Source of the DNA: Candidatus Omnitrophota bacterium
GTDB lineage: Bacteria; Omnitrophota; Gorgyraeia; Zapsychrales; JAKLDJ01
DNA length: 64,000 nt
NCBI GenBank assembly: GCA_022703585.1
Contig: JAKLDJ010000001.1
Coordinates: 182,891-246,890, forward strand
Reading direction: 5' to 3'
Below the pieces are notes generated by a model. That model searched no databases. It saw nothing but the letters and a program-made list of their open reading frames with translations, and was not told the DNA's origin. Shown here piece after piece: positions 1 through 63,700 of this stretch (position 1 is its first letter; every line of letters starts with the position of its first letter). The position numbers and the translations under genes are program-made.

Positions 1-600
1 CAGATCTTGGGGCGTGATCTTATCCATCGGTGTCGGAACGATAGGAATTACTGGCATATTTTGGGCGGCATTCGGATCTCCAGGGTTAGGGCGCATAACC
101 ATCTGCCTGTCCTTTGATGCCATCAGAATGACCGTGCCCTCGGGAATAATCAGTTCATCCAGCCATGGCGGAACAATAACACGGCCCTTACCGAAGTTAC
201 ATACGGCCAATAAGAGCCTCCCGGGATCAAAGGGCCTGTAATATTCTTCCAAAAATTCTCCGACAGGCCGCCCGTTTTTCTTAAGACAAAGCATGCTATC
301 CTGGGAAGCATAACCGTGCAGTTCCAGAATATTTATATCTTGAAAAACATGATATTGGCCGCGAGTCGCGCTGACCAGGTAAACCATGCCTTTCGAGTAA
401 TGTTCCAGTTTCGGATAATAGAAAGACGGAGCATCATCGGGGACAATGCCAAGCACCCTGAGCGTTTCTGCAAGCTCCGTGTACATTCTAAAGACAGCGC
501 CAAGGTCATTCTTGACTTCGGAGTAAATATACTGAAGATAATCCGGCTTATAAATACTGGTAGAATCTGATGCGTCTGCTTCGGCGGTTTGGGGTATCGT
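1..600 (-). other. C-terminal-side domain of unknown function, preceded by a signal-anchor-like segment; a second copy lies at 10363-10960
   Basis: Verified translation includes ...GRPVGEFLEEYYRPFDPGRLLLAVCNFGKGRVIVPPWLDELIIPEGTVILMASKDRQMVMRPNPGDPNAAQNMPVIPIVPTPMDKITPQDL. I could not assign a family. Confidence 0.4.
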
Positions 601-775
601 GCCAGGTCCGGATATAACCGACAGCAAGACCAGCGCCAAAATCAAAACAGGACGTCTCGCCCGAGAGATGTGCCGCGCTTCGCCGACGGCGCGCGAAGAA
701 AGAGGATTATTGTCCGTCCGGATCATCCCCAAAATGGGCCCGGACCCGATGAGGCCTAAAAGACTAAAGAGGGCC
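1..775. repeat. Direct repeat copy A of an intragenic segmental duplication (partner 10363-11137, about 98-99% nucleotide identity)
   Basis: Positions 1-775 align base for base with 10363-11137 with only a few mismatches (e.g. tactgg vs tgctgg, ataacc vs atgacc). Identity ends at 775/11137. The copy may extend beyond the window start. Confidence 0.9.
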
Positions 776-39700: not shown

Positions 39701-42700
39701 TCTGTGTACGTCCCGTAGTATTGCCCGAAGACGTACAGTGTCCCGTTTTCGGCATGAATGTAATACCGGAAAAATAGTTTGTTACCCATCCCCGCGGCGC
39801 GCTTAATCATCCGCCGCTGGTTCATCTGGTCAAAGGTATCTTCGAGGATACCGGTTTCCTCATCGCAGATGTAGCATAATCGTTTTGAGACACCGGTCAC
39901 GGTATTGCCCTGGACATCCCGGACAACCGAGGCAGCCACCACAAAGGTACGGGATCCACTCGGGTTCACAATCTCGACATCCGACCGGCCGTAGGGATAC
40001 TGGCCAAACGCGACCCAGGGTTCGCACTTTCCGTCTGCCTCGCGCCGGCAACGCAATCGCAGGCTACCGCGTTTATCGAGTGATACATTCTTTAAAATAT
40101 AACAATCGGTCAGCGCATTAAATTCGGCATCGCTTAATTCAATAAACACGCTGACATCCTTTTTAAGCTCCGTGTCGTAGACAACCGAAAATTCGCAATC
40201 AAGGTCGGATTCTAATGACTTAAACCGATAGACAAGCGCGTCACGAACAAACGCTATCCCCCACTGGCTGCCATATTTCACGGCGAAATGCGCCCATTCG
40301 CGGTTTTCCATGCGCGGCCCGTCGACTGTCATCACCGGCCTGCCGCCGCCAAAATTCAACGATCCCCTGTTGCCCAATTGCGTCACAACCGCGATATGCG
40401 TATGCGCCGCGCATAAAGGAGCAAAGACGTCATGGCGCACCTTGGTCCGCTCAAGAATAATCGCGCCCGTATCCATATCAATCAGCCGCGTCTTGCCGTC
40501 TTGTTTTGAAAGCGCGTAGGCGTCATCGATTGCCCGGCGTAGCGATTCAGGGATCACCCACGGAACAAAGAAACACCCCAACGCTTCGGACTCGCGAGAC
40601 GAATCAGGAACGACCCCTTTTTCTCTTTCGGCATCCTTTCTTTCGGCAAGAACAGCAAGAGTTGCTTTTCCGTTTTGAGGCGTGTAGCCGAGATCTTTAA
40701 AAGGACTTTGATAACCGAATCCGCTATGAAACGGCAGGCGACGAATAGTCATTTTTCTCTTTCGAGTCTTAGCCTGGGCGAAAAGATTATCGATATCAAT
40801 GCCTTGCCTGGCAAATTCTTGATGCGGAGGATTGCGCAATCGTTCATGCACCCAGTCAATAATCTGAAAGACTCTAACGCGCGTCATGCCAAAGTCACGG
40901 GCGACTTCATCGCCTGTCCCGCCTAAAAACAGATAGCGGATAACAACCTTGCGGTTGCGCACAGAGACATTTCTTTCGCTCATCACGATATCCAAGACCC
41001 CCATCACTCTCGAGCGCCTGTTTTGGTTTTCCTCACTTTGCTCAAAATCATCGGAGAATTCCGCATGTGCATTTTGGACGTTATGCGCCAGCCAAGATTC
41101 GCTATACCGGTCTGTTTCTTTTCTTCTGGACCTCGACCGCGACATAATGCCTTGCTGGATAAGATAATTGGAAACAGCATTGGCTAAAAATCCGCGCCGT
41201 CGTTCATTTCCCCTAAGAAGACTGATAAATTCCCGGCTCGTTCTTGGCTTTCTTTCATCACGCGTCACAAAATCGATCGCTTTAGAAAAGACCATCTGCG
41301 CCATATAACGGATATCCCCGGCATCGATACCCTTCTCCCGGTAATCGCCGAAATACGAAAGCAGGAGCTTCACAACGCAATATTCCAGATAACCACGAAA
41401 GCGCCTGTTTAATGCGTCGTACGCATTACCGTTGTGCTCACCGATCAAACGCAAGAGTTCAGTCGCGATATCTTCTCTGGTAGGTAGCCGCAAAGCCTCC
41501 TTGACTTTTTGACCGTTGTCCTTTGAATGTACACCCGTCCAACTCCATGTGATGCGCCGGCGGTCGGGCTCGGGAATCCCGAAGGCCTCACGCAGCCGCT
41601 GAATACCGCCGAACTTTCGAATCATCCCGGCAAGATCGGGATGTGTTTTATTGATGTCATTCAATCCGACACGAGTCAAATCATAGCCGCCTTCTTTTAA
41701 TCGCACCTGGAGATAATCGGCAAGAATTTCCGAAGGAATAAATCTCAAGAAAACTATCGGATTCTTCAGCCGCCGCCGGCGGTCGATCCAGTCAAACCAA
41801 AAGGCCGCCAGGGTTTCAAATTTCGAGCCGGTATAATCAACCCGTAAGCGATAGAGCGCCTCGATCTCATACACAGCACCATCGTTAAGATAGGAATACA
41901 AAAGCCCGATCAAACTTTTGCCGTTGAAGGCCTTGAGCGGTTCGCGGAAATCATTGGGTATTAAATCCCCGGCCGATGAACGCCTGTCTTTGAATTCTTC
42001 GAGCAGAATATCAACGAAGGCCCGAATGACAACCAATCGCTCTGCTTCGCCAAGCGCGTGGATCTCCTTCCAGAATCCTTGCTTGCCGGATTTTCGCCCT
42101 GTCCGGAATCGCTCAATCCACGGCTGGGCCGTTAACCCGTTATCAGAAATTGTGCCTGCCAGCCCAAACAAAAGGGCCGGGAAGAAAAAGGCGATGCATT
42201 CCAGCGATCCTTCCTGTGCCGTCGAACCACCGGCCGCGTCTTCCGCTCCTAAAATAAATTTGATCACTTCAATCTGATCCGGATCATAAAGTCCTCTGAG
42301 ATAATAATCAAGCGCCGTCTCAAGCGCACTGGGACTAACCGCTTCAAGCGTATCAGCCTTTTCACTGATCGTCATCAGCCGGTCGTAAAATCCATCCGTA
42401 TCAACCAAGGAATCCAGAATCTGAATAACTTGACAGGCTGCTTCAACGCGCCCGCGGACTGTCATCGTGAGGCGGCCCGAAGGGCCGCCGGAGTACATTT
42501 CGCGTAAAAGTGCGATCATCGTAAAGTCATGAGCCGGTAATCGGCCGGCGCGCACCCGAATAAAATCCTCTGTCCGGACAACCCAGGGCAAGGTCGCCGT
42601 CCCGGAAACTTTGTACGGGACAAAATTCCTCCTCGCCTCGGCAACGATCCCATAGGCATCACTGACATCCCTTGCCTTTCCTGCTTTCTGGATCCACAAA

Positions 42701-45700
42701 CCGACGGTTGCCGACCAACGCGGGTCTTTGGGAGATGTCTCACTAAGGAGAAAATCTTCGAAAATCTGTTTTAATTCTATGCCGAGCTCGATGCGCATGA
42801 TTTGATTGAGGGCCGCCATATCAAATCCATCCTCGTCAACAGCGGGATGGCTGTCTTCAAAGAACACTCTTTGGCAAATTTCCTTGAATCGACGCCAGCC
42901 ATCTTCAATATTGTCATACTCCTGTTCTTCGCCTTCGTCCGGCGCATAATCGCCATCGAAAACAATCCTTCTCTCGATAACAATCCGGTCAACAATATCC
43001 ATAATCTGCCGAAAAGCATCTTTGAGTTGTTCACGGCACTCCCGCCACCGGACATTGTGGACCCTGGCTTGCTGGGAATTAAAAAGCTGAACTTGTTCGA
43101 ACTCCGACGAATCAGAGCATCGGACCCACATAACAGGAGAATCCAGCCGGGCGTCATGGGCAAAGCCCTCAACCACAGCAGGAACATACCGACCCTTTCT
43201 CTGCTCAAGCAGCATGACCGCCTCGTCTTCTTTAAAGAGGCGGCTTTTCCTGGCGGCAACTTTTTCATCGACCCCGAGCGGATAAACGCGCACAATCGCG
43301 TCTTTGTGCCGCCGGCCTAAAAATCCGTCGGAGGTTAAAAACATGATCATCCGCCTGTTTTGAAGATTGGGCTGCTCAAGGACGGCGACTTTCTGGCCGC
43401 CGACCTTATATCGAGGCTGCTCGCCTTTCGTGAGGGGAATTTTGTACTGGAGAAATACGATTTGACCGGGCCTCACCTTAAGGCCCTGACTATCCTGATC
43501 GACGATGAGGTCTGCCTGATTGAGCTTTTTGTTGACCAGAAGCTCCGGGTAACCGAGCCGATTCAATATAAAGTTAATTTCGGCGAGCTTGCCCGGCTGG
43601 CGCTCCAGCTCTTTAAAATCTTCGCTGAACAGTTCCTTAAGCCTCCCCTGCCAGTCCTCGGACGTGGGCCCGTTGTCGATTTGGCCCAAAAATATAACGG
43701 GGAGCCCCGCTATAAAGACGGCGGGCCCCGCCAAAGACAGCCCGGCTTCGCCGAAGGCGAAAGCCGAGGCGAGCGGGGTAAACAGGTCCGCCAATGGCAC
43801 AAAACATCTCAAACCGCCGGAGACATCCTCATCTTTTTCTTCATTTCTTCGCCCGGGAATGCTCCAGGTAGAAATGAAATGGGGCGGCAATTTAGGTTCG
43901 CTATTAGGATCTACGCGGTTTGCGATTACTTCAAAGTCCGGAAATGGAATTTCCGGATACCAATTCCGAATAACCATTTGCCCGGGAGGAAAAATACCTT
44001 CGTATTGTTTCTTTCCGGTTTTCCGGCCTTGTCTGTTTAAATACGGGACCAGGATTCCTTTATGGGGCTTTACCATCACCCAGTTTAAACCATTGACAAA
44101 GGCCATTCCGTTTAGAGCCAACACCCGTTTAACGTCTTTTAAAGCCTTAAGTTTATCAGTAACATAACCCAGTGTTTCCCATGTCAATAAGACCAAGTCA
44201 AAATGTCCGTCGGGGTACGGCAGTCCGTTTCCGACATCCCAGAGCCGGGCATGGCTTCTAAAATATTCCATGAACGCTCGAATCTCTCTTAAAGAAGGAT
44301 AAAATTCATGCCGAGTTAACGCTCTCATAAACTGGGATTCATAAATGCGAATATCTTCTTTGTTGATAAAATGCGTCTCCACGTCCGGATAAATTTCCAT
44401 AAATTCATACACAATAACTCCGGCGCCCGCGCCGATAATAAGCGCGCGCTGTCCTTTTCGTCCGGAAAAATCCCTCGACACCATATGAGAAAATTGTTCG
44501 TCCTCAGAATCAAACCCTCGCGTAACATTGACATAGGAGAAATAAGGATTATGGTAATCTTCGTCCATCATTCCCACCAAAAACACGGCGCTCATCCCCG
44601 CCATAAACGGCAGGATAAAACATCCCAAATGATCCGTCGGTTCGCCCTCTTTGTCCGGCGTATTGGTTGATACGAAATCGTCCTTCGAATCCAGCGTTTC
44701 TTTGAGGGTCGGGGGCCACCAGTGATAACGGCTATTGGCCGCCCTCGGCAGCCGCGCCAAGGCCTGGAGGACTTCGGGAACTTTCTTGTGATCCGTAACG
44801 GTATCAGGCGAAACCCCGGCTTTTTGCGCGACCATTTCTCGCGTGGCCGCTATACCCTCGGATATAAAGAATTCTGCTGCCGCAATAATATCATTACTAC
44901 AGGAAGACCGTCCGTGCCTTGATTCCGGTAGCCGGGCAAAGGCTTGGGCAACGGCGGGATTGGATTTTCTGGCTTGAGCAAGAGTAGTAAGGCCAACTTT
45001 GGCTTTGTTCGCGACCATGGCTCTGGTAACTACCCCACCCTGCAACACAAAAAACTCAACCGCCGCGATGATGGCGGAGTGGCTGGGGCATTCTTTTGCC
45101 TTCGCCTTCGGCAACCGGGCAAGGGCCCGGGCAACGGCGGGGTTGGATTTTTTAAACTGGGAAACAGTATTAGGATTAACCCGTGCCCTGTGGGCCACCA
45201 TCTCCTGCGTAACATAAGGAGTACCTTGATTGATAAAATACCTGACGGCAGAAATAATTCTCCTGGCGGGAGGAGTTTTTAATCTTTTGGCTCCCGAAAC
45301 CTGCCCGTCTCGGCCTTTTGTCCGTCCGTTGGACGAGATCTCGTCCCGCTTTTGGGCGGGACGGACCTCGCCGGATCCGGATCTGTCCTGACTTTGAGCC
45401 TCGCCGGAACCGGATTCAATATGTGGAAGTTCCTTAAATAGGCCGCCGTAGTATCTTTCGAGCGTACTGGATGCAATACCCAGAAAATCCGCCGCTTTTG
45501 AATACGAGCCTTTTGCCTGTTCGAAAGCCAAATATACGGCATATCTTCGGCCGGATTTAATCGCAGGAAAAGCAACTTCTAGGTCATTTAACTCTTTCAC
45601 AAATTGCGGCAATTGCCTGCGCACAGCCCCAAAAACGGACGAGTCCGGGCCGGAATCTCTCATGATTTTTTTAACCCCGGGAGCATGAAGCCGTAACAGG

Positions 45701-48700
45701 CGTGCCGCTTGGTCGATATCATTGTCTTTAATCAAAAGCGCCGCATAGACGAGAAGCGTCTTGACAAAGACAATCCACTGCGACAATAAGCCGCTTTCTA
45801 CGATTGCCGTGCGCACAAGCAATTCGGCCATCGTTAATTGTTTCGCGACCCCGGGAATAACCTGGCCATCCTTTTGAAGGACACTCCCGTATTTTCTCTT
45901 TAGCATTGCCGTATTAATCCCCAAAAATTGTGCTGTACTCTGTTGATTGTACTCAGCCTTTTCAAAGGCAATGTCAACGACCAATTCCTGAGCCTCGGCA
46001 AGCGTGGGTAATCGTCGCGCGGAACCGGCATACGCCTCAATAAAATTCTCCAGGGATGCCTCGAGCGCAGTCGTTAAAACCAGGTCTTCGCGGACAAGAG
46101 ATGGGGGGCCAATATTGGTATAGATCGCCCGCGGCCCAGTACCGACCATTTTGGCGGCAACGGCATACGTACCTCCCAGACGATACGCCGCGCGGAATAA
46201 AAGAGCTTTGGTAAACGAAAACCATTGAAAATAAAGACCGCTTTCCTCCAACGCACTCTTTAGAGTAATACGCGCGTATCCGGAATCATACAGGGGACTG
46301 GGAGTAAGAGGCTCCATTCCCGGTAATGGCGATAGCCTGTCAATCTCGGGAGAAATTACGGCGTCTCCTCCCTCTATCTCCGGAACCATACGGGCGCGAT
46401 AAACCCGCCAGAAGGTTGTCGAGTGAATGCCGAGCAATTGGCTGGCCAGGTCCCTGCACCGCCCGCTTCGGCAATAAGCGATATTAGCAACAATCTCAAA
46501 CGATTCTCGAAATGTTGGAAAAGCCGTAATACCGGAGGTTTTCAAAAGGGACAGAAAAGCATCTACCTGGCTTAATGCCTTCTGGGTAATGAGCGGATAA
46601 TGCTCGGCATTCTTTATTTGATGAGACAGGGTCGTCGGATCGATACCTAAGATAGGGGCCGCACGCCGACGGATTCCCCGGTTCTCTTGAAGCGCGGCAT
46701 AAATCAACAAATACCGTGTAAATAAAAGCCAGTCGGATGTTAAGCCGCTGGTGATAAGAACGCGATTAAGGATATCCCGCAAAGAAGCTAAATTCCCGAC
46801 ACCGGTCACGGGCTTAAGCGGCAATTGTTTCTCAACGGCAGCAATATCGTACGCGGCATCGAGGTCTCCGAGCAATTGAATCCAGGTCCCTTGTTCTTGT
46901 TCCGAAAATCTGTAAAATCTCTTTTTAGATATTGATGGACACAAGGCGGCCAATTCTTTCGCCAGCCACATGCGATAACTATCCCTATCGAGATTTTGCT
47001 GCCTGGCTGATGTTTGATGTAGAAAATCAACTGATTGTTTGAATAATTTGTCCGCTCTCGGAGATGTATAAGCAATATCGGGATTCTGATACAGCATCTG
47101 AATTAAAGAACGCAGCGTATCGATTTTATAGGCAATAATGTTACAGTAATTGAGCACCTCTAAGCGCGCCTCCCGGTTGTGAGCCTCAGCGGCCATTTGC
47201 ACAGCCCGGATAGTTTCATCGACGGTCGGCCCGGCTAAGAAGCCTGCGGCCTCTTGCTGAAAACTGCGCACAAGCTCTTCGAGGACATCGGCAGAAATAA
47301 AACGCCTCAACAATTTATCCTCAAGGCTGGCATAAAACCGCACGCTCCCCGGGCTACCCTGGCGCGCGACGCGCTTTTTTGCCTGATGGTCAATACGACG
47401 CTCATCATTGACCGAAATAATCGCGTGTAACCCGCCCAGCGCCTCTGCCCGCGGCTCCAGCACAATATCGGTTCCCCGGCCGGCAATATTCGTTGCCACG
47501 GTCACGGCCCCAACCTTTCCTGCTTCAGCAACAATACGCGCCTCATGAGCGTCATTGCGGCCGTCCAGAAGGTTGTGCGCCACCTCCCAATCCCTTAGGA
47601 TCGTGCTCATAATATGCGCATCCTCAATGGTCGAAAAGATAATCAGAACCGGACGTCCCTGGGCATGCACTTCTAACGCGTCTACGGTCATCCTTTCAAA
47701 TTTCTTTGAGCGCGTCTCGGATAATACCGAATGAAATGCCGTCATTCGCGATTCCTGATTCAGAGGAATACACAGGCTCTCAATACCGTATAGATCAAAA
47801 ATATCAGCAGCCTGCCGGCCAATCGTACCGCTCATCCCCGCCACACGGCCGCCGCGCGTGATAAGCATCCGGTAAAACACCGGGTACATCATAAGGGCAA
47901 TAAATTTCCGGGACCCGGTAAGAGCAACACCCATTTTGATTTCGACTAATTGCTGGATATAGTGAGCCCAGACCGTCCTAAATTTAAGACGCCCAGTATG
48001 GCTATCAACGATAACAACTTCACCGTCCTCAATAACAAAATGTTCATTCTCTTTATAAAATTCTTTGACTATCAGTGCCCGGGGAATAAACGATTCCACT
48101 GAGTTGATATACTGCGCATGTGCCAAAGTTGAAGCGGCAGCCCGATTCCGGACTTTCCTTCTTCCGGCTTCGGTTAGAGTCACGGTTTCATGGATTTCAT
48201 CAACTTCGTAATCAGGATCGCCGACTTTTACCAGGCTATCGGCTATTGAATAAACCGTCTTCAAGAATTCCGGAGTAAAAGATTCGTCGCTGCTTCTTCG
48301 GCCACCCCACCTTGTCCTTTGTCCCTCGGCTATAACCAGGGGAAAACCTGCCTCGTCGACAAAGATACTGTCAACCTCATCTACGACTGTCAAAAACGGC
48401 AATTGGTGAGCCAGGACATGTTTCTTCCGGTCTAACTCAACCTGGTCATGGAGATAATCAAAAACAACCTCGCTTTTATCCGCATACACGATATCGGCGC
48501 TATAGACGGTTTGCGCCTCATGCCAGGGAATGTGCCGGAAAGAGCCGGCTTCTTCATCATCAGGAAGCGTATTGTCAAAAAGATACCGCCCCCGGTGCGT
48601 GACCACCCCAATCGATATGTTTAACCGCGAAAGAATCGTACCCGCCAGTTCGGCATCGCGCCGCGCCAGATAACTATTAAAGGTATGGATGTGGGCTGGG

Positions 48701-51700
48701 CCCTTACCAATGAGAGTAGTTAAATACGCAGGCAAGAGACCGGCCAATGTCTTTCCTTCGCCGGCATCCATTTCTATGGCGTAACCTTCGTAGAGGGCGA
48801 TACCGGCCAAAAGCTGCGTATCATAAAGCCGCTTGGCCGTTATGCGCCGTATGTGCTCCCGTAAAAACGCGAAGGCGTCGACAAGAAGGTCATACGGTTG
48901 CGCTCCGTTTTGCGCCTGATGTTTCAGCAGTAAATGACGCGCTCCCCATTGGTGAGCAGGCACAGCCATCAGGGCAGGTTCTTGCTCGTTGATTCGCGCC
49001 ACCAAATCACGGTAATACTCCGGCACACTGGGCAGTTCATCGCCAAAGAGCCTTTTTGCGGGGCCGGCCTCCTCGGCGACGATTGTCTTTTCAATTAAAT
49101 CTTCCGGGGGTATCCCGGCCGCTTGACAGGCGGCTTCCCACGAGCCAAAGTATTTCGGATGCGCGGCAGAGAAATATATCGCCCGCCCTTTAATCGCGAG
49201 GCCAAAATATCGCTCAAGGATATCTGTCGTTTCGACAGATATATCGTGAGAGATGGCCTTTTGCCAAAGACCAACACCTTCCCGGTGCAAAATTCTGATA
49301 GCCTCAATCAGCAGTTCCTTGCTCCACGACATCAGTACGCGTTCACGCCGGATGCGATCAGCGTCAAGCCCTAACGCTGCCAATACCGAATACCAGGGGC
49401 CGATGTTTTCAACCGTTTGAAGATAGACGTCACGCCCGGTCATTTGAAGACCTCTAAAATGCAACGCAATAATTTTCCCTGCCCTGTCGGAGTCTCGTAT
49501 CCGCAACAAAACCGGATTAAGCGATACGCCGCTAGCATGCAGAGTGTGAATGATCTCATGCATGAGTTTCTGCGACGCTGCCTGTTCTTTGCTTGTATCG
49601 CCTTCTTCTACCATCCCCGTCAGCCAAAGGCCCAGAAATAGAATATCCATCCCGGGTAAAAACGCGCCCAGGAGGCTGTCCGTCTCGACAGGGCTTTGAG
49701 TATTTTCTCCGGAGATGTCAACGGGTTCCGGCGGCAGAGAAGCGGCGCGCTTAAAATGAACCCCAAGAAGAGCGCTGATTTTCCGCGTAACCTCGACATA
49801 ATCCACTTCTTCGAATCCGGCAGGCATAAATGCCTCGATAATCGAGATACCCCTGGCCGCTTCCTCGATCCAAAGCGGCACACCATGCGATCTATTAAGA
49901 TGATGCAGGCTCTTTTTTCCGGTAACCGTTGTCACCTTAAAATGATGTTTTGCCGATGCCGCGAAATGGCCCAGGACAACGACGGCCTTGACCCTTTGCA
50001 ATTGCCGTAACGGTTCCCGTATCTTACCCGCGTCGTCAAGAAGATAATGATTTTCGGTATACCGGGCAGGACCGGCCCAAAGCCTGTCAGCTGTCTGCAG
50101 GATAAGCGATTCCTTTTCACTGCCAAAAACCAATCCCGTATGCCGCATCAGATAAACCATCAACAGCGCCTTATCGGTTTCGTCCCGGACAAAAACAAGG
50201 ACCGCGCCCTTGCCCGGAATAAAAAGAAGCCCGCAGGCGCTTTTTTCTTCCCGAATACTTATAAGAAGATCAGCGTACCGATGGGAGAATTCACGCACCG
50301 GCAAAGACGGCAGGGCAATGCGATGAGACCGGATATATACCATTTCATTGATAAAGGAAACCGGGGTCCGGCAACTGCGCATCAGATGGTCGAGATATAA
50401 AGGATACACGCGCTCCAGGGAATCGGCAAATTCCTGCAAAAGCGCACCAGTGACGGCTCGAGGATAGCGTTCCAATAACGAAGTTTTATCTTTGGCCGCC
50501 ATCTCTCGCAAGGTCACGGCGCAGGGTTCGTCGCGAAGAAGGGCGCGGCGTTCAAACAGGGTAACAGCCTTTTTAAAGACCCAGGTATAAATAATTTCCC
50601 CGGCTTCCTGTTCGCCGCGGCCTTTAAGGCCGAGCCATTCTTTTAATTCATCGACGGTGACACGCTCGTGCGTCCGGGGGTCATGAAGCAGATAGGACAA
50701 GACATCCTGAAATTCCCGGAAGTTTTTCTCCAGGAGGGCAACTTTTTTCTGATAGCCTTCTTCTTGGCGGTAACGAATATCCGCGTTAAAATACGAGGGA
50801 ACAAAAAGCATGGCTCTATTATCCGAGCTCCAGGTAACAAAGGTCACCTTCCAGCCCAGATGAAGCAACAACTCCTCCATCCATTCAGGTATCGCCGGAA
50901 ACACATCATCAAATTTAGCCAGGAAAATAATTTCGTTTAATCCATTGGCACAATCACCCAGCATCTTTCTGACCTCTTCCCGGATTTGTATGGAATTTTC
51001 GGCGTTCATAAGATACTTGAGCTTGGCCATGGTATGCTCGCTGAGTATGTCCCTATCCGACGACACAGTAATCTCAACCAAGGCTAAATGCCCGTCTTGT
51101 TTACGGATGAGCCCGTCAAACTCCATGTAATGAAAGTCCAGGAGGGCTTCGGGGACAACGCTGTATCCCAGCGTCTCTAAATATTGAAGTCCCAACAACT
51201 CGCCTATTGCCCCGGCCATCTTTTTCTTTGTTTCTTCGATACCCGTAGAAACCCAACGACGGTCAGATAAATTTATCTCCTCTAAAAGATTCCCGCGCAA
51301 TGAATGCAACGACCCCCATCGGCCGATGAGCGCGACCAGCTCTTCTTTCTGCTGGGGATCCTCGCCGATTTCAATCAATGCCTTAGCGTGCAACGGCGAC
51401 CATCCCGCACGGCTTTGAGCCGTCACCCGCCGGATATTCTCGCTGATACCTTGCGCAAGGGAATCATCCATGCCTCTTAAAAGCACCCTAAGAGCATCTT
51501 CGGTCCGCCAGTAATCCGACAAGGAGCCAAAGATCTTCGATAAGACCTCGGGTTGTCCTTCCCGTAATTGTTCGACGTGGATAACACAGTGGTCCCGATG
51601 CTGTGATTCGGAAACCGGAAGGCGGATTGTCCATTTTGTCCCCCGGTCACCTTCACGCTTGACCGCCAGGCGTCCGTGAAAAATTCTTTCGACAGTGTCA

Positions 51701-54700
51701 GTAATCATGGGTTGTTGCTGCCCCTGTTCCCAGGATTTAAGGCGGTCATTTTGATTGATGCCTTGAGGGGCATCGTCAACAAGAGCGATAACAAGCTGCT
51801 TGTCCTTGAAACGTAAAGAGATTTTGATCTCTCCGGCGCCAAACTTAAGGGCGTCTTCGATGATCGAGAATAGCCGGTTACCGAGCTCGCGGCGGAACGA
51901 TCCTTTGGGAATTTCGAAGTACTTTGCCTCCGGTGCGATGCTGATTTGGAAAACCGCCTGCGGATACTGCCTGCCATAACGTTCCCCGGCGAGCTGAATA
52001 ACATCCTCCAGAAGCCGATGGACACTTAAGGTGCTGTCCGAAACCCCCTGCACCGTCCCCAAAACCGGCAACAAGGCCAAATATATGGCAGATAAATCTC
52101 CAGCGAGCATAAACGGCACCATCAGCGTAAACGGTAAAAATCCGTTCAAGTCATCTTTTTTGCCTGCTTTGGCCTTAGCCTTATTTTTCAAAATCGGCGC
52201 GGCCTTGCGAGTTTTCGAAAGCCTGCGATCAGGATGGGTGATGTATTTCTGCCACAAGGCATCAGAGATAAATCCGAGATCACGCAACATTACAATGTGG
52301 AACGCAAGCCCATGCGGATTGGAAACAATGCCGGTAAGAATAGCACGGTTGTATGCCGCAAGAACAGACGGTGAAAACGCCGAACTTCGTAAGTGTAGCA
52401 AGAATGATATATTTTTAATTTGACCAGAACGATTAAGCATCGTAAAAGCCTGAAGACGCCTAAGGACCTCATTGCCAAGCTCTGTTTTGCGGATTTCAAA
52501 TTTCTCTGCCTTCGATTTTTTCCGACGTTGCGGCGTCTGCCGCCCGGAAGCTTTATCTGACGCCTTATTTCTGCCCGGCGGGCATTGGACTATTCCATAT
52601 CGTTTTAAATCATCCGGATGATTTCGAAAATAGTATGCGAGCCCTGTCTGGGTCACGCCCATCACCTTAGCTGCCTGGGTGGGGTTAAGGCCCCGGAGTT
52701 TTTTCAATCCGGCCTTAGCTAAAAGTGCGGGAATCTTGGAACCTCTTCCCCTTCCTTTTCCTTTGCTGATTCCATAGCACTGGAGATCGTCGGGATGTTT
52801 CCGAAAATACTCAGCAAGACCCGTTTGATGAACACCTATGACTTTGGCTGCCTGTGACACATTAAGGCCCTTAAGCTTTTCTATCCCTGCCTGGACCAGG
52901 AGGCCGGGAATACCGGATTCTTTTTGTCCCCGTACCACCCCATAATGTTCAAACTCATCCGGGTGTTTATTAAAATAATAAGAGAGGCCTACCTGGGTTA
53001 CCCCGAGCAACGCGGCCGCCTGAGTAAAATTAAGACCATTGAGTTTCTCAGGGCCGGCTTGGGCCAGGAGAATGGAAATTTTGGATTCCCTCTTTAATCC
53101 CCCTGATTTTCCTCCTTTAACAATGCCATAACGCTTAATATCGTCGGAATTCTTGCGAAGATACTTCAAAAGGCTCATATAGTGTACGCCTATGACTCTG
53201 GCCGTCTCAACAATATTAAGGCCGCGAAGCTTCTCAGGGCCGGCCTGGGCCAGGAGAATGGAAATTTTGGATTCCCTCTTTAATCCCCCTGATTTTCCTC
53301 CTTTAACAATGCCATAACGCTTAATATCGTCGGAATGCTTGCGAAGATACTTCACAAGACTCATATAGTGTACGCCTATGGCCCTGGCCGCCTCGATAAC
53401 ATTAAGACCGCGGAGTTTCTCAGGGCCGGCCCGGGCTAAGAGGCCTGAGATCTTGAGTGCGTTCTTTCCTCTTATTATTCCGTAGCGTTCAAGATCTTCG
53501 GGGTGCTCTTTAAAATGCCTGCCAACATCTTTCAAGTTTCTTCCTATAGCCTTGGCCGTCTGCGCAATATTAAGACCCTTAAGTTTCTCCGGGCCAACCT
53601 GGGCCAGAAGGGCGGGAATCCTGGGTGCTTCCCTGCTATTGACTACCCCGTAACGCCCGAGTTCCTCAGGGTTTTCTCTGAAGTACCTGGAAAAGCTTGT
53701 CTGGCCTACCTTAAGAGCCTTGGCCACCTGTGTAATATTAAGACCCCTGAGTTTCTCGGGACCGGCCTGGGCCAAAAGGTCTGGGATCTTGGATCTTTTT
53801 TTCCATTCTCCCCTGCCTTTTCCTTTAATAATGCCATAACTCCGGGCATCGTCAGGATGCTTGCAAAGGTACGCCGCAAGACCATTTCGATGCACACCTA
53901 TAATTTTGGCTGCCTGAGCAAGATTAAGACCTTTGAGCTTCTCGGGACCGGCCTGGGCCAGGAAGTTGGAAATCTTGGATTCCCTCTTTGTTTTTCCTCT
54001 AATCAATCCGCAGCAATCAACCTCATCCGGATGCTTTTGAAGATACCGCGAAAGTCCTACTAGGCTTACACCGATCAGCTCGGCCACCTGGGTAAAATTA
54101 AGACCACTGACCTTCTCGGAGCCGGCTTGGGCAAGAAGAACGGCAATCTTGGGCTCCCGCTTCAATTCCCCCGGTTTTTTTCCTTTAACAATGCCGTAGC
54201 GCTGAATATCGTCGGGATGTTTCCGAAGATACATTGCGAAACCTGTTGGATTCACACCTATCACTCCAGCCACCTGTAACACATTAAGACCTCGCAATCT
54301 CTCGGGGCCGGCCTGGGCCAGGAGGCCGGGGATCTTAGATCTTTTGTTTCCCTTTCCTTTCCCTTTGATAATTCCGTAACGATTGATTTCATCCAGATGG
54401 GATTTAAAATACCGCCGAAGGCTTTCCGACCTCAGTCCGATAATTTGAGCTGCCTGGGTGATGCCAAGACCGCGAAGTTTTTCCGGGTCAGCCTGGGCCA
54501 GGAGACAGGGAATCTTGGATCCTTTTTCTCCTCGTACTACCCCGTAACGCTTAAGCTCATTCGGGTGTAGATTAAAATGCCGAGAAAGGCCTGCTTGGCT
54601 TATACCTATCATCGCAGCCACCTGAGCGATATTGAGACCTCTGAGTTTTTCCGGGCCTGCCTGGGCCAGGAGGCCGGGAATCTTGGATCCTTTATTTCCC

Positions 54701-57700
54701 TTTCCTTTGATGATGCCGTAACGCTTGATCTCATCTGGATGTTCTTCAGCGTACTTGCAAAGACTTGAATAAGTAATTCCTGTAACTTTAGCTGCCCCGG
54801 CTATATTAAGTCCTCTCAATTTCTCCTGGCCGGCCTGGGCCAGGAGGGCCGCGATTCTTAACTCCCCTGCACCCTTGACGATCCCGTAACGTATAAAATC
54901 GTCGGGGTGCCGCCGAAGATGCCTGGCGAGAGATAGAATTTTTACTCTGATAATCCTGGCTGCCTGGGTGACGGTGCGGCCCTTAAGTTTTTCCGGGCCG
55001 GCCTGGGCCAGAAGTACGGAGATTTTGGATCTCCTTTCTCCCTCTTTTATTTCGTAGAGTTTACGATCTTCCGGATGCTCATTAAAATATTGCAAAAGGC
55101 CGCCCTGGCTTACCCCGATTAGCGCAGCTGCTTGAGCAACGGTAAGGCCGCGAAGTTTTTCCACTCCCATCTGGGCCAGGAGGCCGGGAATCCTGGACGC
55201 TCTCTGCCCCCTGGTTATTCCATAGCGTGCGGCCTCGTCCGGGTGTTTCCTGAAATATTGAGAAAGACTTGTGTCACTCACCCCTATCACTTTGGCCGCC
55301 CTAAAGATGCTGAGGCCTCTTAATTTCTCTATCCCTGCCTGAGCCAGGAGATCGGAAATTGCCACCTGTTTCGGACCCTTGACGATCCCGTAACGATTGA
55401 TCTCATCCGGATGATTCTTGAGATATATTTGAAGGACACCTGACCCTGTTTTGATAACTTGAGCAGCCTGAACAATATTAAGGCCCCTCAATTTTTCTAT
55501 CCCCGCCTCGGCCAAAAGGCCTGGGATACGGGAATAAATGCTATCTCTCGCCTTCTTTCTCTCCGACGGAGACGGCATCACAACCCCTTCATAAATGAAA
55601 TAGGCCTGGTTGATCCCGACGCCCAATGCCGCGGCCGCGCTCTTAAGATTCTCATACTTCTTGCCGAATTTACCCTCCAGCATCCCAACGATAACAAGAC
55701 GTTGCGCCTGTCTAAGAGTGGGTAACGCCTGCGGCTCCGCGGCAAAGAGGCCGGCAAATTCAAGATAGCATTGCCTAACCTCGTGGGCAGCCACAGAGGC
55801 TTTGTCAACATTCTTTAAGGCGTTGCCGTAGACGGCTTCCGAGATATCCAGGAGCCTGGCGGCAATCCCGTAATTTCCCCGCGCCAGGATATTCGCCGTA
55901 TAGGCAAAAAGGATCTTGGCAAATTCAAGATAATACCTCTGCGGTAAATGGCTTCTCTCAAAACTTTCTTTAAGAAATCTCATGGCTGTTTCGATGTCGC
56001 GGTGATTACCATTCCCTCCATTTGAACCGCGCCGCTTCTCATAGGTTCTCAAGAATTCAAACGAGATACCGGCTTCGTGCAGAAAATCAAAAAAGCGCTG
56101 CGTATCGGCTCCGGAAAGACCGATAATCCCTCGAGAAGTCAGGCGCACCGGTTCGTAGAGGATGGCAGCCAGTTTTTGTTCTGTCCAGATTCGGTAGGCC
56201 TCGGCATCGGCCTCACGACTTTGATACTGCGCCTCCTCTAAAAAGAAGGGAATTTCCTGTAACAGCGCCCATGCGGCATCTTTGGATTTACAGATCAGGT
56301 GGACTATGCCCCAGAGAATTTCAAGCCGCTCAACGATAAAATTAAAATTCCTAAGCACCTCTGTGCGCAACCTGCGGCTGCCTTCTTCCGTTGCGGCCTG
56401 GGCCTGTTCCAAAATCTGCTCAACCGCATCCCCTTCAAAAAGACGCGGCAAATCACCGCTACCGGATCTTTCTAATTCTTTAAACTGCGGGACAAAGGCC
56501 TTTAACAAACGTTCCTCAAGATTTGAATAAATACGATAGCTCCCCGGCGCCCCCTGACGGGCCGCGCGCCGCTCGGCCTGGGTATCAATACGCCGTTCGT
56601 CGTTAGCCATGAGAATAACGTGCAGCCCTCCGCGCGCGAGCGCCGCCTCATCAAGAACAATGTCTGTCCCGCGTCCGGCGACATTGGTTGCGACCGTGAC
56701 CGCGCCCAAAGCACCTGCCGCGGCAATGATAACAGCCTCCGCCTCATCGTCGAGGCCGTCGAGGACCTGGTGCTCTATTTCCATCTGACGCAACAGCACG
56801 CTCACGGCATGAGCATCCCGGATAGTCATTGTCACCGCCAAAACCGGACGGCCCTTTTTGTGTTCCTCGATGATCTCCTGGGCCATAGCCGCATATTCTT
56901 CTGCCGCGTTTTCCAGGACCGTCGTCGGATATCGCGTCAAACGTGACGATCTGTGCGGAGGAATTGCAACACTTTGAATGCCATAGTTTTCTTCTATCTC
57001 CGCAGCCTGCGCGCCGATGGTTCCACTCATGCCGCTCACCACTGCCCCCAGCGCCTTCAGGCGCCGATAAAACATCGGAAAAGTAGTCAACGCCTCGGCC
57101 CGATAGGGAAGAGTGATGCCCACCTGCGCCTTGATCTCGACAAATTGATGGAGATAATTCATCCACATGTGGCTGTGTTTCCTGCGGCCGGTGTAAGGGT
57201 CGATAATCACAATGCGCCCTCCTTCACGGATAAATTGCACATTCTCTTCATAAAACTCCTTGACCACAAGCGCCGTCTCCAGTAATCGCCGGGTCACCGG
57301 CCGCTCAAAATTGACAAATAATGACTGTGCCTGCGCAGAGGATATAGCAGCAGTAATCCCTTGCGGGGTTAACATGGCCGTCCGGTGATCCCGATTAAGC
57401 TCATAATCTCCGGGCGTATTTAGTTTCTCGGCTATTTCATAAAGCGCCTTTAGGAAAATCGGGAGCATCTTGGCGCTCTCTCCCTTCGAGAGAATCAGGG
57501 GTGAAGCCGACTCATCAACCCACACGCTGTCGGCCTCATCCACAATCACAAAGGACGGCGCATAATGAATCGGTATCCTATAGCGCGGAGCAAGGCTTAA
57601 ATTCGCGCTTAGATAATCAAAGACCGCCGCGCTTTTTTCGGCATAGAGGATATCAGCGCCGTAAGCCTGTTTCTCTTCCTTCTGAATGAGACTCTGCGAG

Positions 57701-60700
57701 AATCCCTTGACCCTATAATAGCGCCCTTCACAGACACAACTGACCGATACGTCCAGCGGAGAAAGAATCTCCGCGGCCTGCAGGGCATCACGCCTGGCCA
57801 GGTAATTGTTGAACGTATGAACGTGCGCGTGCACTCCTCGCGGCAACGAGTGCACATAAGCGGCCAGGATTCCGGCGTAGGTCTTACCTTCACCGGACTC
57901 CATTTCGACAGCGAAACCTTGATACAAACAGGCCGCGGCCAGGATCTGCTCGTCATAAAGCCGTTTCCCGTTCAATCTTCTGATGCGTTCCCGGAGAATG
58001 GCAAAAGCTTCAACCAGAACTTCGTCAAGAGTATCCGGCGTGGCCCGTTTCTTCAACTCCAGGGCTTTTTGATACAAGCCACTGTCCGAAAGCGCCCGCA
58101 GCGCCTCTTCTTCGGCCGCGACCTCTTGAACAATCCTTGTTAATTCGTCCGGCGGAGCGGGCAGACGGCCTCCGTCGATAGAAGAGAACGCTCCGACATT
58201 ATCCGGCGCCTGTGTCCGTGCATCTTCCTCATCCCTTACCGTACCCGGGAAGGCAAAGACGAACGGCAACAAGGCCAAAATCCAAATCCCCGGCCACGCC
58301 AAGATGAAACCGCAAAAATCTTCTTCCCCGAAGGGCAGCTGCGCGTCCTTTAGGGGTAATTCCGACTGGGTCCGGTCTAACCCTAAAATAAACCGCACAA
58401 CCGCTAATTCATCCGGATCGCTCAAATCCTTGGAATAAAATTCCATCGCATAAACCGCGGCCTTGGGAGTTATCCCTCTAAATTTCCGGAGATCATTGCG
58501 CAGACGGACAATCGCGTTATAAAACAGGTCCTCCGGCGTCCAATGGTCCAGCGCCCGGGCAATCATCATAGCCCATCGAATACGCTCACCGATTGTAGTC
58601 AAACGTGCGCCCGTGTCCCTTAACAGGGCAATCATGGTATAGCCGTGACACGGCAGAACATCAGCCAGAATCTCATGATAAAACTCTTCTTTAACAGCCC
58701 AGGGAATCGTTCGCGTCGCGGCAACCCGCTGGCCGACAAAATCGTTTAAGGCTCTTTCAATCTGCTCATACGCCTCCCGGACTTTTTCGCGCTCACCCGG
58801 CATAAGCCAATTGCCTAACTCTGCCGCCCAGGCCGTGTCCGTCCCGTCAGGATTGTCGTGCAAAATTTCAGAAAGTATCCGGGGCAACGTAGCCCGCAAC
58901 CGGCTCTCGGTAAAGGGCTGAATAAACAGGACATACGAATCCAACCCTTCTTTCGAGAACCAATCATTACTCTTAAAGAAAATATTCCGGCATAGGCGCG
59001 CAAATTCATCCCAGTCTTTTAAAACGCTCTTTACGCCGCTCCTGAAAGGCCTTTCAAGGTCAATCCGATTTTGAATGATGTCGACGATGTCCCGTAAGCC
59101 TTCCCGGAATTCTCGGCGGGTACGGGCAAACTCATAATTATGCTCAAGGACTTCATCCGCCCTGAAGAATTGAACTTCGCGGGCAGACTCCTCTCCCGGC
59201 ACCTGAACCGTCATGAAACGGCCGATATCCGAGCGATAAAATCCGGAAACCGCACCTGTAGCCTTCTTTCCGTCGATGTCGATAAGCACAACCTGGTCAC
59301 CCGAAACAAACAATGCCTCTTTCTTTGCCGAAACCTCCGCATCGATTTCCAGGGGAATAACGCGCAAGATATTGCTGAACTTGATTCGATAAACTTCTCC
59401 TCCCGGCAATAACCGAATCAACGGCCGGTCATCGTTTTCAACCTCCGCCGGCTCTAAGATAACAACCTTGCATCCCGAAACCGTAGTACGGTCAATAACC
59501 ACTTGGTCTGTCAGGGTAAATTGCATATAGGCAATCAGCCCCTTGCGCAGGCTAATCTGCGCTGCCGGCTCCCGGTCGCTCATCAGGTACTGGAATATTT
59601 GATTTTCCGGGACAAGCGGTTTCAGCCCCAGCTTTTCCAAAAGGCTATTCACGCGCGCGAACTCTTCTGGGGTAAGCTCCGAGCTCGGTTTATCCAACAG
59701 AGAACTAAGCTCCCTTAAAGATGCATTAGTATCATCGTTAACGGCCATGCCCAAAACCGGCAATAACATCAGCGGTAGCATAAAGCAGGCAAGATTTTCT
59801 CCTCTTTGTTTTCCGGCAATCATTTCATTTCTATCGTCAAACAACGTCAATCCAAGCTCAAATCCAAGCTCTTGGGTAATAACACGCCGGTATTCTTCAA
59901 ATTCCTTTCGCGTATACATCATAGTAAGATCAGCCAGAATCCCGGGCAACCTGGTGCCAAAAGGAGAAACTTCTTCATTCGCAATTTTAGATTCTTTAAG
60001 TAATGCCTGCATTTGCGTGTTACCGCCGTACAGGATGGTGCACATGGCCCCGGGCGTTACGATACGATGGCTGACCATTGTGCCTGTTATTCTGAATATA
60101 TCCGCCAGGGCCAGTAAATCGCCCGTCGAAGGCAAGCTGTCTGCCGTCATATTTCGCTGAACCGGTAAAATAACCCCATCTTTGGGATGGGTATGCCCTT
60201 GCTCTTTAAAAGCGGCCGTTGTCATCTCGGAAAAATTATCCGTCATTTCAGTAAGCGTTTTTAAATCGGCCCACAGCGGAATAAGCTGTTCCCCTCTAAG
60301 CGTCGACGTAAGCAGACCCCGCTCGACACCGTCTTTGAGATCTCTGCCTTTTCGAAAATACCAGACATCCTCTTGCTCTAACCGGCCAAAAGTAATCTCG
60401 GAATCTGAAGCTGTTATGGCCAACGCTTGATAAAAAACATCTGTCGCAGTAATCGAACCCGGTATACAAACAACTCTTAATTGTTCATACGGCTTAAGCG
60501 CGCTTAATCGGATCAAAAGATCTTGGAGAGAATTAAATGTTATCGTCTTTGTCCGCGGAATATATGTTCCCATCTTTTCAAGTTGAAATATCAAGTATTC
60601 AACCACATCCCCAACAACATCGCTAAAGGTGGCCATCACAGCAGGAACCTCTTTTAAAAACGGCAACAAAGCGACCCTCCTCGTATTCGTTGCCCACTCA

Positions 60701-63700
60701 AGCTCCTCGCTCACCAAAAATCTTTTACAGATATCGTCAACGTTTTCCCTGCTCAGAATTACCATCTCAATACCATTGATACGCGTGAGCCGTTCGGTGA
60801 AAATCCTTCGGACAATATCAAACTCATCATCCGGGGCCATAATGCCAAGGAAGTGCGGGTCATGCGCCAAAACAAGCAATAGCTCGTCGATCTGCTGGTT
60901 AACCTGCGCCCTTCCATCCTCCAGGCTGCCGATGACGGGTAAAACAACCAAGCTAATTAGCGCCCCCAGGGCAAAAATGTTTTCAAGCCCGGCAAAAGGC
61001 AAGATCAAGGCAGCAAGCCCTTGCTGTCTTGATTGTTCGGATCGTTTTTGCTTCTGTGCTCGGTTAGAATCCGGCGTATAGCCCAAATCTTCAAACGGAC
61101 TTACATATCCTTCACCGCTATGAAACGGGCTTCGAACCGCGGCTCTTTTGATTCTCCTTCTGACTTGGAAAAGTAATTCAATATCGGCTGCTAAACCCTT
61201 GAACCGGGGATCGCGGTCTAGCTTTCTTCGATAATCATTAATGATGCCACTGACACGATTTCTTGATATCTTAAAATGGGCAGCCACCTCCGTGTTCGAC
61301 CGGCCAAGAACAAGCCATTGATTGATAATGCGCCGGTTTCTATCAGATAACCCCAGCTGCGCCATCGTATAGTTCAGGTCAGAGCTTACTCTCTCCCACT
61401 CATCATTATCAATTAACATATCAAGAACATTCCTTGTCCCGTCGGGGACATCGCCGTTCCTTAAGCCGTCAGTCGACAGGCCATTGCCGTTTTCTTCTTG
61501 CTCGGAAATCGCCTGGAGCGATAGCGTACGCCGCTGCCGCTTCATTTCCTTGAAAACTCCCAGGCCTCTTAAATATGTGATCACTTCATTGCGGATAACA
61601 CCCCTTCGCGCAGTAGGATATTCTGACAAGCGACTGCCGTTTAAGAGGGAAATAAAACTGGGGAAACCTAAAGTGCCGCCCCGGCGCATAACATAGGTCA
61701 CGGCTCTTTTAAGCGCGAGATCACCGATAAAGTTAATTTCAACGCTCGAGATTGTTTCCAAACCATGATTTCCCCAAGTGCAATAATTCAAATAGTACCT
61801 GACCCGGGCCCGCAATAAAGGAGCTAAAACTTCCCTTAAGGCTAAGTAGGCACTGCTGTTCCCCTTTTCGATAAGCCTTAATAGCGCCTTCCCTCGTTCG
61901 TATTTGCCTGCGATGCCAAGTGCTTCTTCAACTTCTTTTTCATCCGCATACGTCCCTTCCCATTGAGGAATCTTTCTTTTGTCAGAAGGTTTCTCCAATC
62001 CTAAAATTTTGCGTGCGTTTGTCATTCCGCCGACCATCCTCACCGCAATTCTTAGCCGACCGGTCAGTTGTCCGTCGATAAATGTCTCAACCGGCCTTCC
62101 GGATTCTTCCCATACCTTCTTTAACCAAAGAGCTTTGACCTCAAAAGGGACATACCCGGAGACTATGACCTCCCCGTGTTTGAGCCTTCGCTCTATCCAG
62201 CCAAGCCAAAACTCTGCCAAAGTCCTGAATTCCGACCTGTCCTTGGAGGCTGATAAATCATCCTGTAGCCGGTAAAGCGTTTCAACGGAATATTCCAGGA
62301 TATGCTTCCGGTAGGAATACAAAAGCCCCCGGAGGCTCTTGCCGCCAAAAATCCCGTTTCCGGATTGCGTGAAATCGTCCGGAATCAAATCCCAGATAGA
62401 ATCTTTCTTGACCGGCTGACTTCTAAGAAGAACATGGATAAATCTTCTAAAGATGGCGGTCTTAACTTCAGGAGATAGTTTGTGAATATCCTGCCAAAAA
62501 TCCTTTTCTCCCGAAGACCGGACTTCCCTGAACCGATTGACATAAAAGTCACAGACACTCTTTAAGGCCGGCCGCCAGTAGCGCCTAAGATCACCAATAT
62601 GAACCCCGAGATCTTCCTCGATGCGAGAGACAACCTCGCTGCGGGACAGAGGGCCTGATGTCGTGCTCATGACCAAAACAATTGCCTGCACGACAGAAAT
62701 ATGTTCAGCGATAATCGATTTTGTCTCACCGCTGCTCCTTTCCAATGCCGCCTGTAATATCTTCGGCCAGTGACAAGAAATCGCCCTTCCTTTGAGATGA
62801 ATTTTCTCGGCCAACCATACTTGAGACGGCACCCGGCCGTTTTCCTCTACGGTTCTTATAAGCAGGCTGACCGCCTCATCTAAATCAAATCTCCCTAAGG
62901 AGGATTGTTCCCCCTCCCACAACCTGATAGCTTCTTTGACTCTTTCATCACCCCGCGCCTTCAAGGTTTCCAGAACCTTCGACCAATAGCTCCCAATCGT
63001 ATCAGGATCAACGCTAAATACTTTGCCCAGCTGAGGCTGGGTGGGCAGATAGACTCGCGCAGGATCGTTTTCAAACAATGACATAATGTAATTGGCAATA
63101 GCCTCAAAAGGATCAATATAGTACTGCACCACCCATCTTAGTTTTTCATTATCCTGTTCCATCAAGGCAGGCAAAATTTTGGTCGGCCAGTACGCCTTAA
63201 TCGTGCGCAAGCTGACACGGGCTTTAAGAGCAACTGTTTCCTGTGTCGGAAGTTTTCCAGTTTTTTCAAAGATATTTTTGATGATCCGAACAGTTTTTTT
63301 CAGGTCAAATGTGCCGCGGGAGGCACGCTGTTGGTTGCGGGCGCGGACAATTTCCGCTACTCTGGCATCGCCCTGTTCTTCAAGGCCGCCTAAGATTTTC
63401 TGAAGATGAAGCCCTGCGGTAGAAATGCTGACCCCAACCCCATCGGCAATAAAGGGAATGGTGGGCATTTTTTTGGCTTGCGGATTTTTACTGAAATAAT
63501 CCAAGAGAAAATCAATGGTCCTCTGCAAATCAAAATCACCGCTGGGTTTTCTTTCTTTGGCCATACCGATAACAGGGAAGAAAGAACAAAGGGCCGCACC
63601 AACTGTCCACTGACCAAAATTAAAGAGGGCCGCTGCAGCACCAGTTCCAACCCCACCAGCCACGGAAGAGGTTATTAGAACTGTCAACTCAAAGAGAGTT

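Follow-up and report, generated by a model that had tools for sequence, protein, structure and literature searches.

Giant multi-enzyme and tandem-repeat proteins of Candidatus Omnitrophota have been described in two papers (West-Roberts et al., 2023, bioRxiv 10.1101/2023.11.21.568195; 2026 preprint, 10.64898/2026.06.07.730766). Both report domains resembling SecA, numerous membrane segments, and tandem domain repeats that have decayed, with TSP3, WD, HEAT, TPR, hexokinase, and dockerin as the repeat classes named; proteins of this class generally contain internal repeats. They were interpreted there as surface effectors (10.1101/2023.11.21.568195; 10.64898/2026.06.07.730766) and up to now the class has been regarded as multi-enzyme scaffolds located at the surface or attacking cell walls. 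Nucleic-acid-binding content has gone unreported: the terms 'HTH' and 'helix-turn-helix' are absent from both papers, and DNA-binding content is mentioned in neither. The present analysis concerns a stretch of 64,000 nucleotides (nt) from a Candidatus Omnitrophota bacterium (contig JAKLDJ010000001.1 of GenBank assembly GCA_022703585.1, positions 182,891 to 246,890 of the forward strand; hereafter the window), in which 17 tandem, in-frame copies of a helix-turn-helix (HTH) unit lie within a single giant reading frame. It is proposed, at roughly even odds (a probability of about 0.5), that this array is a flexible cytoplasmic chain that would bind DNA multivalently and with low specificity, tethering it to a membrane-embedded giant protein.

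In most respects the window protein resembles the giants already published. A six-frame stop scan found one minus-strand frame that runs through the window without a stop and is open at both ends; it represents part of a giant gene of more than 64 kb. The longest other stop-free stretch, in any frame of the window, measures 288 codons. Like the published Omnitrophota giants, the encoded protein exceeds 21,000 amino acids (aa), carries about one hydrophobic segment per 500-1000 aa, combines SecA_DEAD and PP_bind domains without a scaffold/wing domain, includes methyltransferase, HATPase_c, PPDK_N, HAD, and HEAT domains, and contains internal repeats of domains with decayed nucleotide similarity. 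SecA_DEAD is present twice, and further Pfam matches include sigma-70 regions 2 to 4, an Rce1-like domain, an M20/M28 peptidase, PIG-L, A_deaminase (adenosine deaminase), and MutS_V. A hydropathy scan of the 21,333-aa translation gave 49 peaks, with the chain broken up by hydrophobic segments. Unlike the published giants as described, the window protein carries an HTH array, which, if it binds DNA as suggested, adds a nucleic-acid-binding theme to a class of proteins discussed as cell-surface or metabolic.

Small helical DNA-reading units set in series on one polypeptide are familiar from Psq (Pipsqueak, four repeats), from Myb R1R2R3, and from the TALEs, whose 34-aa two-helix repeats form a rigid superhelix with the variable residues on the DNA-facing surface. 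Psq and Myb have three to four copies, compared with 17 here, and whereas the TALE array is rigid, the prediction for the units of the window protein is of separate domains joined by flexible linkers.

The 17-unit array and its predicted fold

The units of the array (Table 1) are 56-62 aa long (168-186 bp), with a mean of 58.2 aa. When the 21,333-aa translation was searched with a profile of the unit, exactly 17 matches were obtained and none lay outside the array; in a leave-one-out comparison, every unit scored 77-101 bits against the profile of the remaining 16. A repeat search of the DNA recovered an 80-nt core in 16 in-register copies spaced 168-186 nt apart. The consensus of the unit is KIPxLLAQAGPEKLRGLNxxQAAxxIGVxxxxLxxYFxxHPDDxxRYGIVKG, and each unit is followed by a Gly/Lys/Arg-rich linker of variable length (4-10 residues). 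An initial annotation, made from the letters of the window, had described about 17 tandem units of about 58 aa in a membrane-punctuated protein. The count and the length agree with those found here, its consensus was recovered from the 17 aligned units, and the hydrophobic segments along the chain are evident in the hydropathy scan; it had placed the array at 52575-55560, where the array indeed lies, but the bounds are corrected to those of Table 1, on the minus strand.

Table 1. Coordinates of the array and associated features in the window (aa, residues of the translated window frame)
Feature	Window position	Strand	Residues	Description
Enclosing reading frame	1..63999	minus		21,333 codons, no stop, open at both window ends (six-frame stop scan)
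Upstream hydrophobic separator of module A	58249..58305	minus	aa 1899-1917	Hydropathy scan
SecA-like ATPase motor A	56161..58218	minus	aa 1928-2613	SecA_DEAD, PP_bind, and P-loop_SecA
Fis-type HTH no. 1, module A	55801..55932	minus	aa 2690-2733	Upstream of the array; Fis-type profile, i-E 1.4e-16, the domain being itself part of the profile seed alignment
Fis-type HTH no. 2, module A	55573..55716	minus	aa 2762-2809	14 residues ahead of unit 1; Fis-type profile
Array, u1-u17	52564..55530	minus	aa 2824-3812	17 tandem in-frame HTH units, net charge +91
Block u8-u9-u10	53791..54336	minus		Older partner in a three-unit block duplication with u14-u15-u16
u13 and u14	53083..53454	minus		Most recent duplicate pair; identity 88% (DNA) and 87% (aa); dS 0.33, dN 0.07
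Block u14-u15-u16	52738..53268	minus		Second partner in the three-unit block duplication
Post-array tail	52126..52563	minus	aa 3813-3958	Strongly basic at both ends; no known family matched
Downstream hydrophobic separator of module A	52051..52125	minus	aa 3959-3983	Hydropathy scan
Paralogous SecA-like motor B	46942..49089	minus	aa 4971-5686	40% identical to motor A
Fis-type HTH run after motor B	45442..46731	minus	aa 5757-6186	Five clear copies and one weak partial copy

Positions 19-38 of the unit match the classical 20-residue HTH motif: motif positions 5 and 9 hold Ala and Gly, respectively, and those numbered 4, 8, 10, 15, and 18 are hydrophobic; by unit position, the motif residues are A22/A23, I26, G27 (in 14 of the 17 units), V28, L33, and Y36. 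Summed over the array, the Pfam family HTH_3 (PF01381) reached an E-value of 1.9e-23 and 82.7 bits (cut-off 23), with no single stretch passing; taken singly, nine of the 17 units matched HTH_3 (best E 0.0017), all below the curated threshold. All remaining weak Pfam matches of the array belong to the HTH clan, and the matches in NCBIfam and PHROGs were sub-threshold and mostly to DNA-binding or regulator families. There is no curated family for the unit in Pfam, NCBIfam, or PHROGs. Alignment with hhalign of the unit to ten Fis-type HTHs, drawn from the window protein and from an Omnitrophota fragment (P0076), gave a probability of 93% (E 3e-07), the overlap being restricted to a 26-column core (unit positions 14-39), with a different N-terminal helix.

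The unit shares its 20-residue core with the classical HTHs (HTH_3 of the Cro/C1 type and HTH_8 of the Fis type), including Ala5, Gly9, the hydrophobic pattern, and the G-V-S turn. Unlike these, it carries a distinct helix N-terminal to the core (I-P-x-L-L-x-x-x-G), and an extension on the C-terminal side (H-P-D/E-D-x-x-K/R-Y-G-I-x-K-G) closes the domain. These two features are peculiar to the unit family, for which the family-wide signature is I-P-x-L-L-x3-G-x3-L-x-G-L-N-x2-Q-A-A-x2-I-G-V-S-x2-G-L-S-x-(Y/H)-(L/F)-x2-H-P-x-D-x3-Y-G-I-x-K-G. The initial reading of the unit as an HTH followed by a Gly/Lys-rich linker is supported by the motif fit, the summed HTH_3 score, hhalign, and structure prediction with AlphaFold2. 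Its suggestion of a resolvase- or Fis-type family was not upheld: resolvase HTH_7 (PF02796) matched one of the 17 units (E 0.049) and Fis-type HTH_8 (PF02954) two (E at least 0.099), no curated threshold being reached. HTH_psq likewise matched a single unit, weakly.

AlphaFold2 modeled one unit as a compact helical domain with a mean predicted local distance difference test (pLDDT) of 86.3 and a predicted template modeling score (pTM) of 0.64. Its helices span positions 2-9, 11-14, 19-25, 30-39, and 41-47, and a small bridge between 17 and 50 closes the domain. For three consecutive units, per-unit confidence was good, linker pLDDT fell below 50, and pTM was 0.34; the units therefore resemble beads on a string more than a solenoid, with the caveat that the alignments behind the models are shallow. 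The structural solenoid that had been offered as an alternative in the initial annotation, that is, a continuous rigid rod, is very improbable. The regular 56-62-aa period and the conservation of unit termini are what such a rod would show, but the conserved termini pair inside the unit, through the 17-50 bridge, and not across units, the linkers are variable in length, and both the low three-unit pTM and the disorder of the linkers argue for separate domains.

Charge, compartment, and candidate ligands

The array has a net charge of +91 (+9.2 per 100 aa), as compared to -4 for the whole 21,333 aa. Per unit, helix 3 contributes +1.35 and the linker +1.53, while helix 4 carries -0.94. At the canonical DNA-contact positions, 29% of residues are Lys or Arg, 40% are polar, and 7% are acidic. 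DNA binding is supported, indirectly, by the HTH motif, by this charge and contact-position composition, by purifying selection on the array (see below), and by the compartment that the array appears to share with an ATPase. It is also supported by context. In P0003, another protein that carries the unit, a five-unit array is followed by SNF2, Helicase_C, and HhH_5 domains, and in P0001 the array is preceded by a run of XRE-type (Cro/C1-like) HTH repeats; within the window protein itself, sigma-70 and MutS_V domains are present. The 17-copy HTH chain, the Fis-type HTHs that follow motor B, and the sigma-70-like and MutS modules together point to a hitherto unrecognized link of the giant proteins with the nucleoid.

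The array lies in a segment bounded by two hydrophobic separators, between which the order is SecA-like motor A, two Fis-type HTHs, the 17 units, and a basic tail. Motor A keeps the Walker A (GEGKT), DEAD-box (DEAD), MSGT, and AGRGTDI motifs. The SecA scaffold/wing domain (PF07516) has no match in the window, while PF07517, PF01043, and PF21090 are each present twice. By hydropathy, there is no further membrane-like segment between aa 1917 and aa 3959, save a buried strand of the SecA P-loop domain, and so the array would lie in the same compartment as the ATP-dependent motor, presumably the cytoplasm. The pairing of a SecA-like motor with HTHs recurs, both within the window protein (motor B and the HTH run behind it) and in fragment P0076, where about four or five Fis-type HTHs adjoin a SecA-like motor. 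A query made of SecA plus linker brought up none but ordinary SecA proteins, about 32% identical to it, and no close relative among giant proteins.

On the preferred reading, 17 independently folded basic HTH domains would be strung on a flexible chain at the cytoplasmic face of a giant membrane protein. Each unit would offer a recognition helix that is polar and basic, with further charge supplied by the Lys/Arg/Gly linkers, such that many weak contacts of low specificity could sum to high-avidity binding of double-stranded DNA (dsDNA). The chromosome or another nucleic acid would thereby be tethered at the membrane-embedded giant protein, near the SecA-like motor. All three elements of this proposal, namely DNA as the ligand, the cytoplasmic location, and the tethering role, are inferred. 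Because the array is small, soluble, and modular, fragments of it should be expressible, and in contrast to most of such a giant protein its biochemistry, including DNA binding and the dependence of avidity on copy number, should be directly testable.

Several observations weigh against this proposal. The most variable positions of the unit fold are the contact positions of the recognition helix, while conservation is highest at structural residues (helix 1, G-L-N, H-P-D, and Y-G-I); a variable recognition-helix surface would fit equally a surface without functional constraint. Foldseek returned no significant fold match (best E 0.57 in PDB and 0.85 in BFVD), and a sequence search of PDB gave E-values of at least 0.3 throughout. 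Although the top-ranked, non-significant Foldseek structures (ScpB, MarR, TetR, homeodomains, LysR, GcrA, and InsA) are all HTH or winged-helix proteins, the top PDB match, ScpB, is a winged helix that binds protein and not DNA. The structure models themselves were built on shallow alignments of 5 and 17 sequences, all of them paralogous units. The predicted topology rests on a crude hydropathy scan together with the ATP requirement of the motor. Finally, the 489-aa protein P0008 has a signal- or lipoprotein-like segment at its N-terminus, followed by units, which hints that units can be exported.

Some of these points would be accommodated if the units kept the HTH fold and no longer bound nucleic acid, serving instead as a docking platform for proteins or as a flexible spacer, to recruit or position partners; these might be RNA polymerase, substrates of the SecA-like motor, or modules elsewhere in the giant protein. 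HTH folds are frequently reused for protein contacts, the conservation in the unit is mainly of core and structural positions with the recognition-helix surface the most variable, the best, non-significant PDB matches include protein-binding ScpB and the PhyR/NepR sigma-like mimics, and the adjacent SecA-like motor retains its preprotein-binding domain. A platform, however, has no need of a +91 charge polarized on helix 3 and the linkers, the canonical HTH motif is fully kept, Gly9 and Ala5 included, and the arrays of relatives stand beside SNF2/HhH and other HTH modules. Docking is considered unlikely, though a serious alternative.

The same basic charge pattern would also suit RNA. The array might bind the long mRNA of the giant gene itself, or rRNA, and so help the SecA-like motor in co-translational handling. 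SecA is known to interact with ribosomes and nascent chains, and a messenger of more than 64 kb would presumably need protection. Against this, the unit matches classical dsDNA-binding HTH families only, in relatives it stands together with an SNF2 dsDNA translocase and HhH, and profile searches of the units matched no RNA-binding family, which leaves RNA an improbable ligand.

Another alternative would place the array outside the cytoplasm, where it would bind polyanions, whether DNA from the environment or from prey or the acidic polymers of cell walls, in the service of the attack function proposed for the giant proteins. This would accord with the published interpretation of giant proteins as surface effectors (10.1101/2023.11.21.568195; 10.64898/2026.06.07.730766) and with the N-terminus of P0008. 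Yet the array and an ATPase motor dependent on cytoplasmic ATP stand in one and the same unbroken soluble segment, a Lys-rich stretch directly ahead of the downstream hydrophobic segment fits the positive-inside rule, and the array carriers P0002 and P0003 are without any hydrophobic segment. An extracytoplasmic array is accordingly regarded as doubtful indeed.

If the array does tether DNA from the cytoplasmic side, a more specific and improbable role would be one in cis, during synthesis of the giant protein, with the 17 units and the two Fis-type HTHs beside the SecA-like motor holding the chromosome, possibly their own gene, at the site of membrane insertion. The array would be synthesized early, as it lies about 2,800-3,800 residues into the visible chain, and at least 17,500 residues follow it. 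Were this so, the transcription, translation, and membrane insertion of a gene of more than 64 kb would be physically coupled. In a variant of this idea, the hypervariable recognition helices may give the units their own specificities, allowing a TALE-like reading of one long composite DNA site. Binding of the array to its own repeated coding DNA was considered and rejected, as the DNA repeats are about 174 bp apart and the protein units a few nm apart.

Age of the array and distribution of the unit

The initial annotation had put the DNA identity of adjacent units as high as about 98% and had taken this as a sign of ongoing expansion or contraction by slippage; the first claim does not hold, and the second finds no support. 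Pairwise DNA identity among units is 49-75%, the one exception being u13/u14 at 88% (21 of 186 positions differ; omega about 0.2). Even this youngest pair already has a synonymous divergence (dS) of 0.33, and 50 of the 136 unit pairs are synonymously saturated beyond correction. The median proportion of synonymous differences (pS) is 0.69, near saturation, and that of nonsynonymous differences (pN) is 0.32, about half of pS. Tandem Repeats Finder detected the u13/u14 pair alone (2.1 copies, period 186, 93% matches to its own consensus), since the remaining units are too diverged, and the array is thus defined at the protein level. Neighboring units are in general no more similar than units far apart. 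At an offset of six units, identities of 0.70, 0.70, and 0.72 link u8-u10 with u14-u16, as compared to a background of about 0.58. Units of the array average 54% identity with one another and 40% with those of other proteins; since the nearest relative of each unit is another unit of the same array, the array expanded within this lineage. With synonymous sites mostly saturated and pN well below pS, the sequences indicate an old array, built by single-unit and block duplications and kept by purifying selection. In the relative P0001, five units are 78-98% identical to one another; arrays of this family do amplify, but not recently in this window. Opposite the array, on the plus strand, is a 186-aa open reading frame (ORF) with a GTG start (53503-54063); antisense stop-free runs of 150-290 codons are common throughout the window, and this one most probably arises as a side effect of the long sense frame.

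Repeats can be mis-assembled, which raises the question of whether the array is an assembly artefact or else a decaying, functionless expansion. Because the units differ by 25-50% in DNA, an assembler could neither collapse nor inflate the array, and even u13/u14 offer 21 differences. The frame is open across all 17 units and 21,333 codons, pN lies well below pS, and the GC content of the array is the same as that of the rest of the window, so that artefact or decay is hardly credible.

When 1.84 billion representative proteins were searched exhaustively with the profile, 76 matches were obtained at E <=1e-3. Near-full-length units were found in about 19 of these proteins, 38 units in all, with no more than five or six per protein; 17 is the highest copy number seen, compared with six or fewer elsewhere. 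The named carriers are all partial proteins from metagenome-assembled genomes of Candidatus Omnitrophota/Omnitrophica, except one labelled '[bacterium]'; most are fragments of very long ORFs, and a few are small proteins. By sequence, the unit is an uncurated HTH subfamily restricted to Omnitrophota. The whole array, used as the query of a word-indexed protein search, gave no match, and scans of genome and metagenome contig collections found no relative. No unit-carrying protein shares more than the unit with the window, except for the SecA motor common to P0076.

The remaining profile matches cover the HTH core only, and several of those examined are small uncharacterized poly-HTH proteins, 250-620 aa long and with 5-10 units (P0034 has seven units in 353 aa, P0023 has five, and P0026 about ten). 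They come from other bacteria, Legionella and Coriobacteriales among them, and their gene neighborhoods gave no further clue. They share with the array head-to-tail HTH units, of about 52-56 aa, and a similar pattern (L-L-x-x-x-x-I-x-x-A-A-x-x-L-G-V-S-x-x-x-L-x-x-F-x-K-K-H-G-I). They differ in lacking the H-P-D-D...R-Y-G-I extension and in being whole small proteins, not modules of giant ones.

Some of the carriers have features of their own. P0001 (locus L001) contains 16 copies of (R/S)(S/A)EL(R/Q), and its array (aa 6014-6284) lies between motifs at 6008 and 6281; P0002 contains nine copies of ETTEPSSIG, and its array (aa 679-898) lies between motifs at 657 and 899. In both, the array is a cassette, as judged from the sequence, bracketed by lineage-specific motifs that recur along the whole protein. 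These motifs are candidate cleavage or punctuation sites; according to published work on giant proteins, such sites are not known. Neither motif is present in the window. P0004 (locus L002) has three units and lies 8 bp downstream of an ORF of more than 3,480 aa, while P0005 (297 aa) consists almost entirely of units.

Further modules and internal duplications of the giant frame

The sigma-70-like module of the window protein is complete (window 37957-38652, minus strand; aa 8450-8681), with regions 2, 3, and 4 each above the Pfam cut-off. MutS domain V, in the same polypeptide, scores 149 bits (window 7780-8322, minus strand; aa ~18560-18740), and the adenosine deaminase and PIG-L deacetylase domains fall within the same 5,000-aa stretch.

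A module separator recurs at 15 sites of the window, for example at aa 1405, 6460, 8740, 12289, 16815, 17173, and 19240. Its pattern is an acidic or polar stretch, then (S/T/G)-L-(G/A/S)-C-F-x-L-P, about 18 hydrophobic, Pro-rich residues, and G-M, and it is closer to a sorting or processing signal than to a standard transmembrane helix. Another hydrophobic motif, LTTFLLPSTFL, is present in four copies, three of them inside EILTTFLLPSTFLTGL.

Old segmental paralogy, at 26-31% identity, connects aa 486-995, 1386-1639, and 1663-1873 with aa 7294-7796, 6739-7000, and 7035-7251, respectively. The paralogous blocks surround both SecA-like modules, and their order relative to the motor differs. A long-range internal duplication joins window 1-894 with 10363-11211 on the minus strand (aa 21036-21333 and 17597-17879); the two copies, about 10.3 kb apart, are 89% identical in protein over 298 aa, and the duplicated region reaches the end of the window. 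This duplication is recent and far younger than the HTH array.

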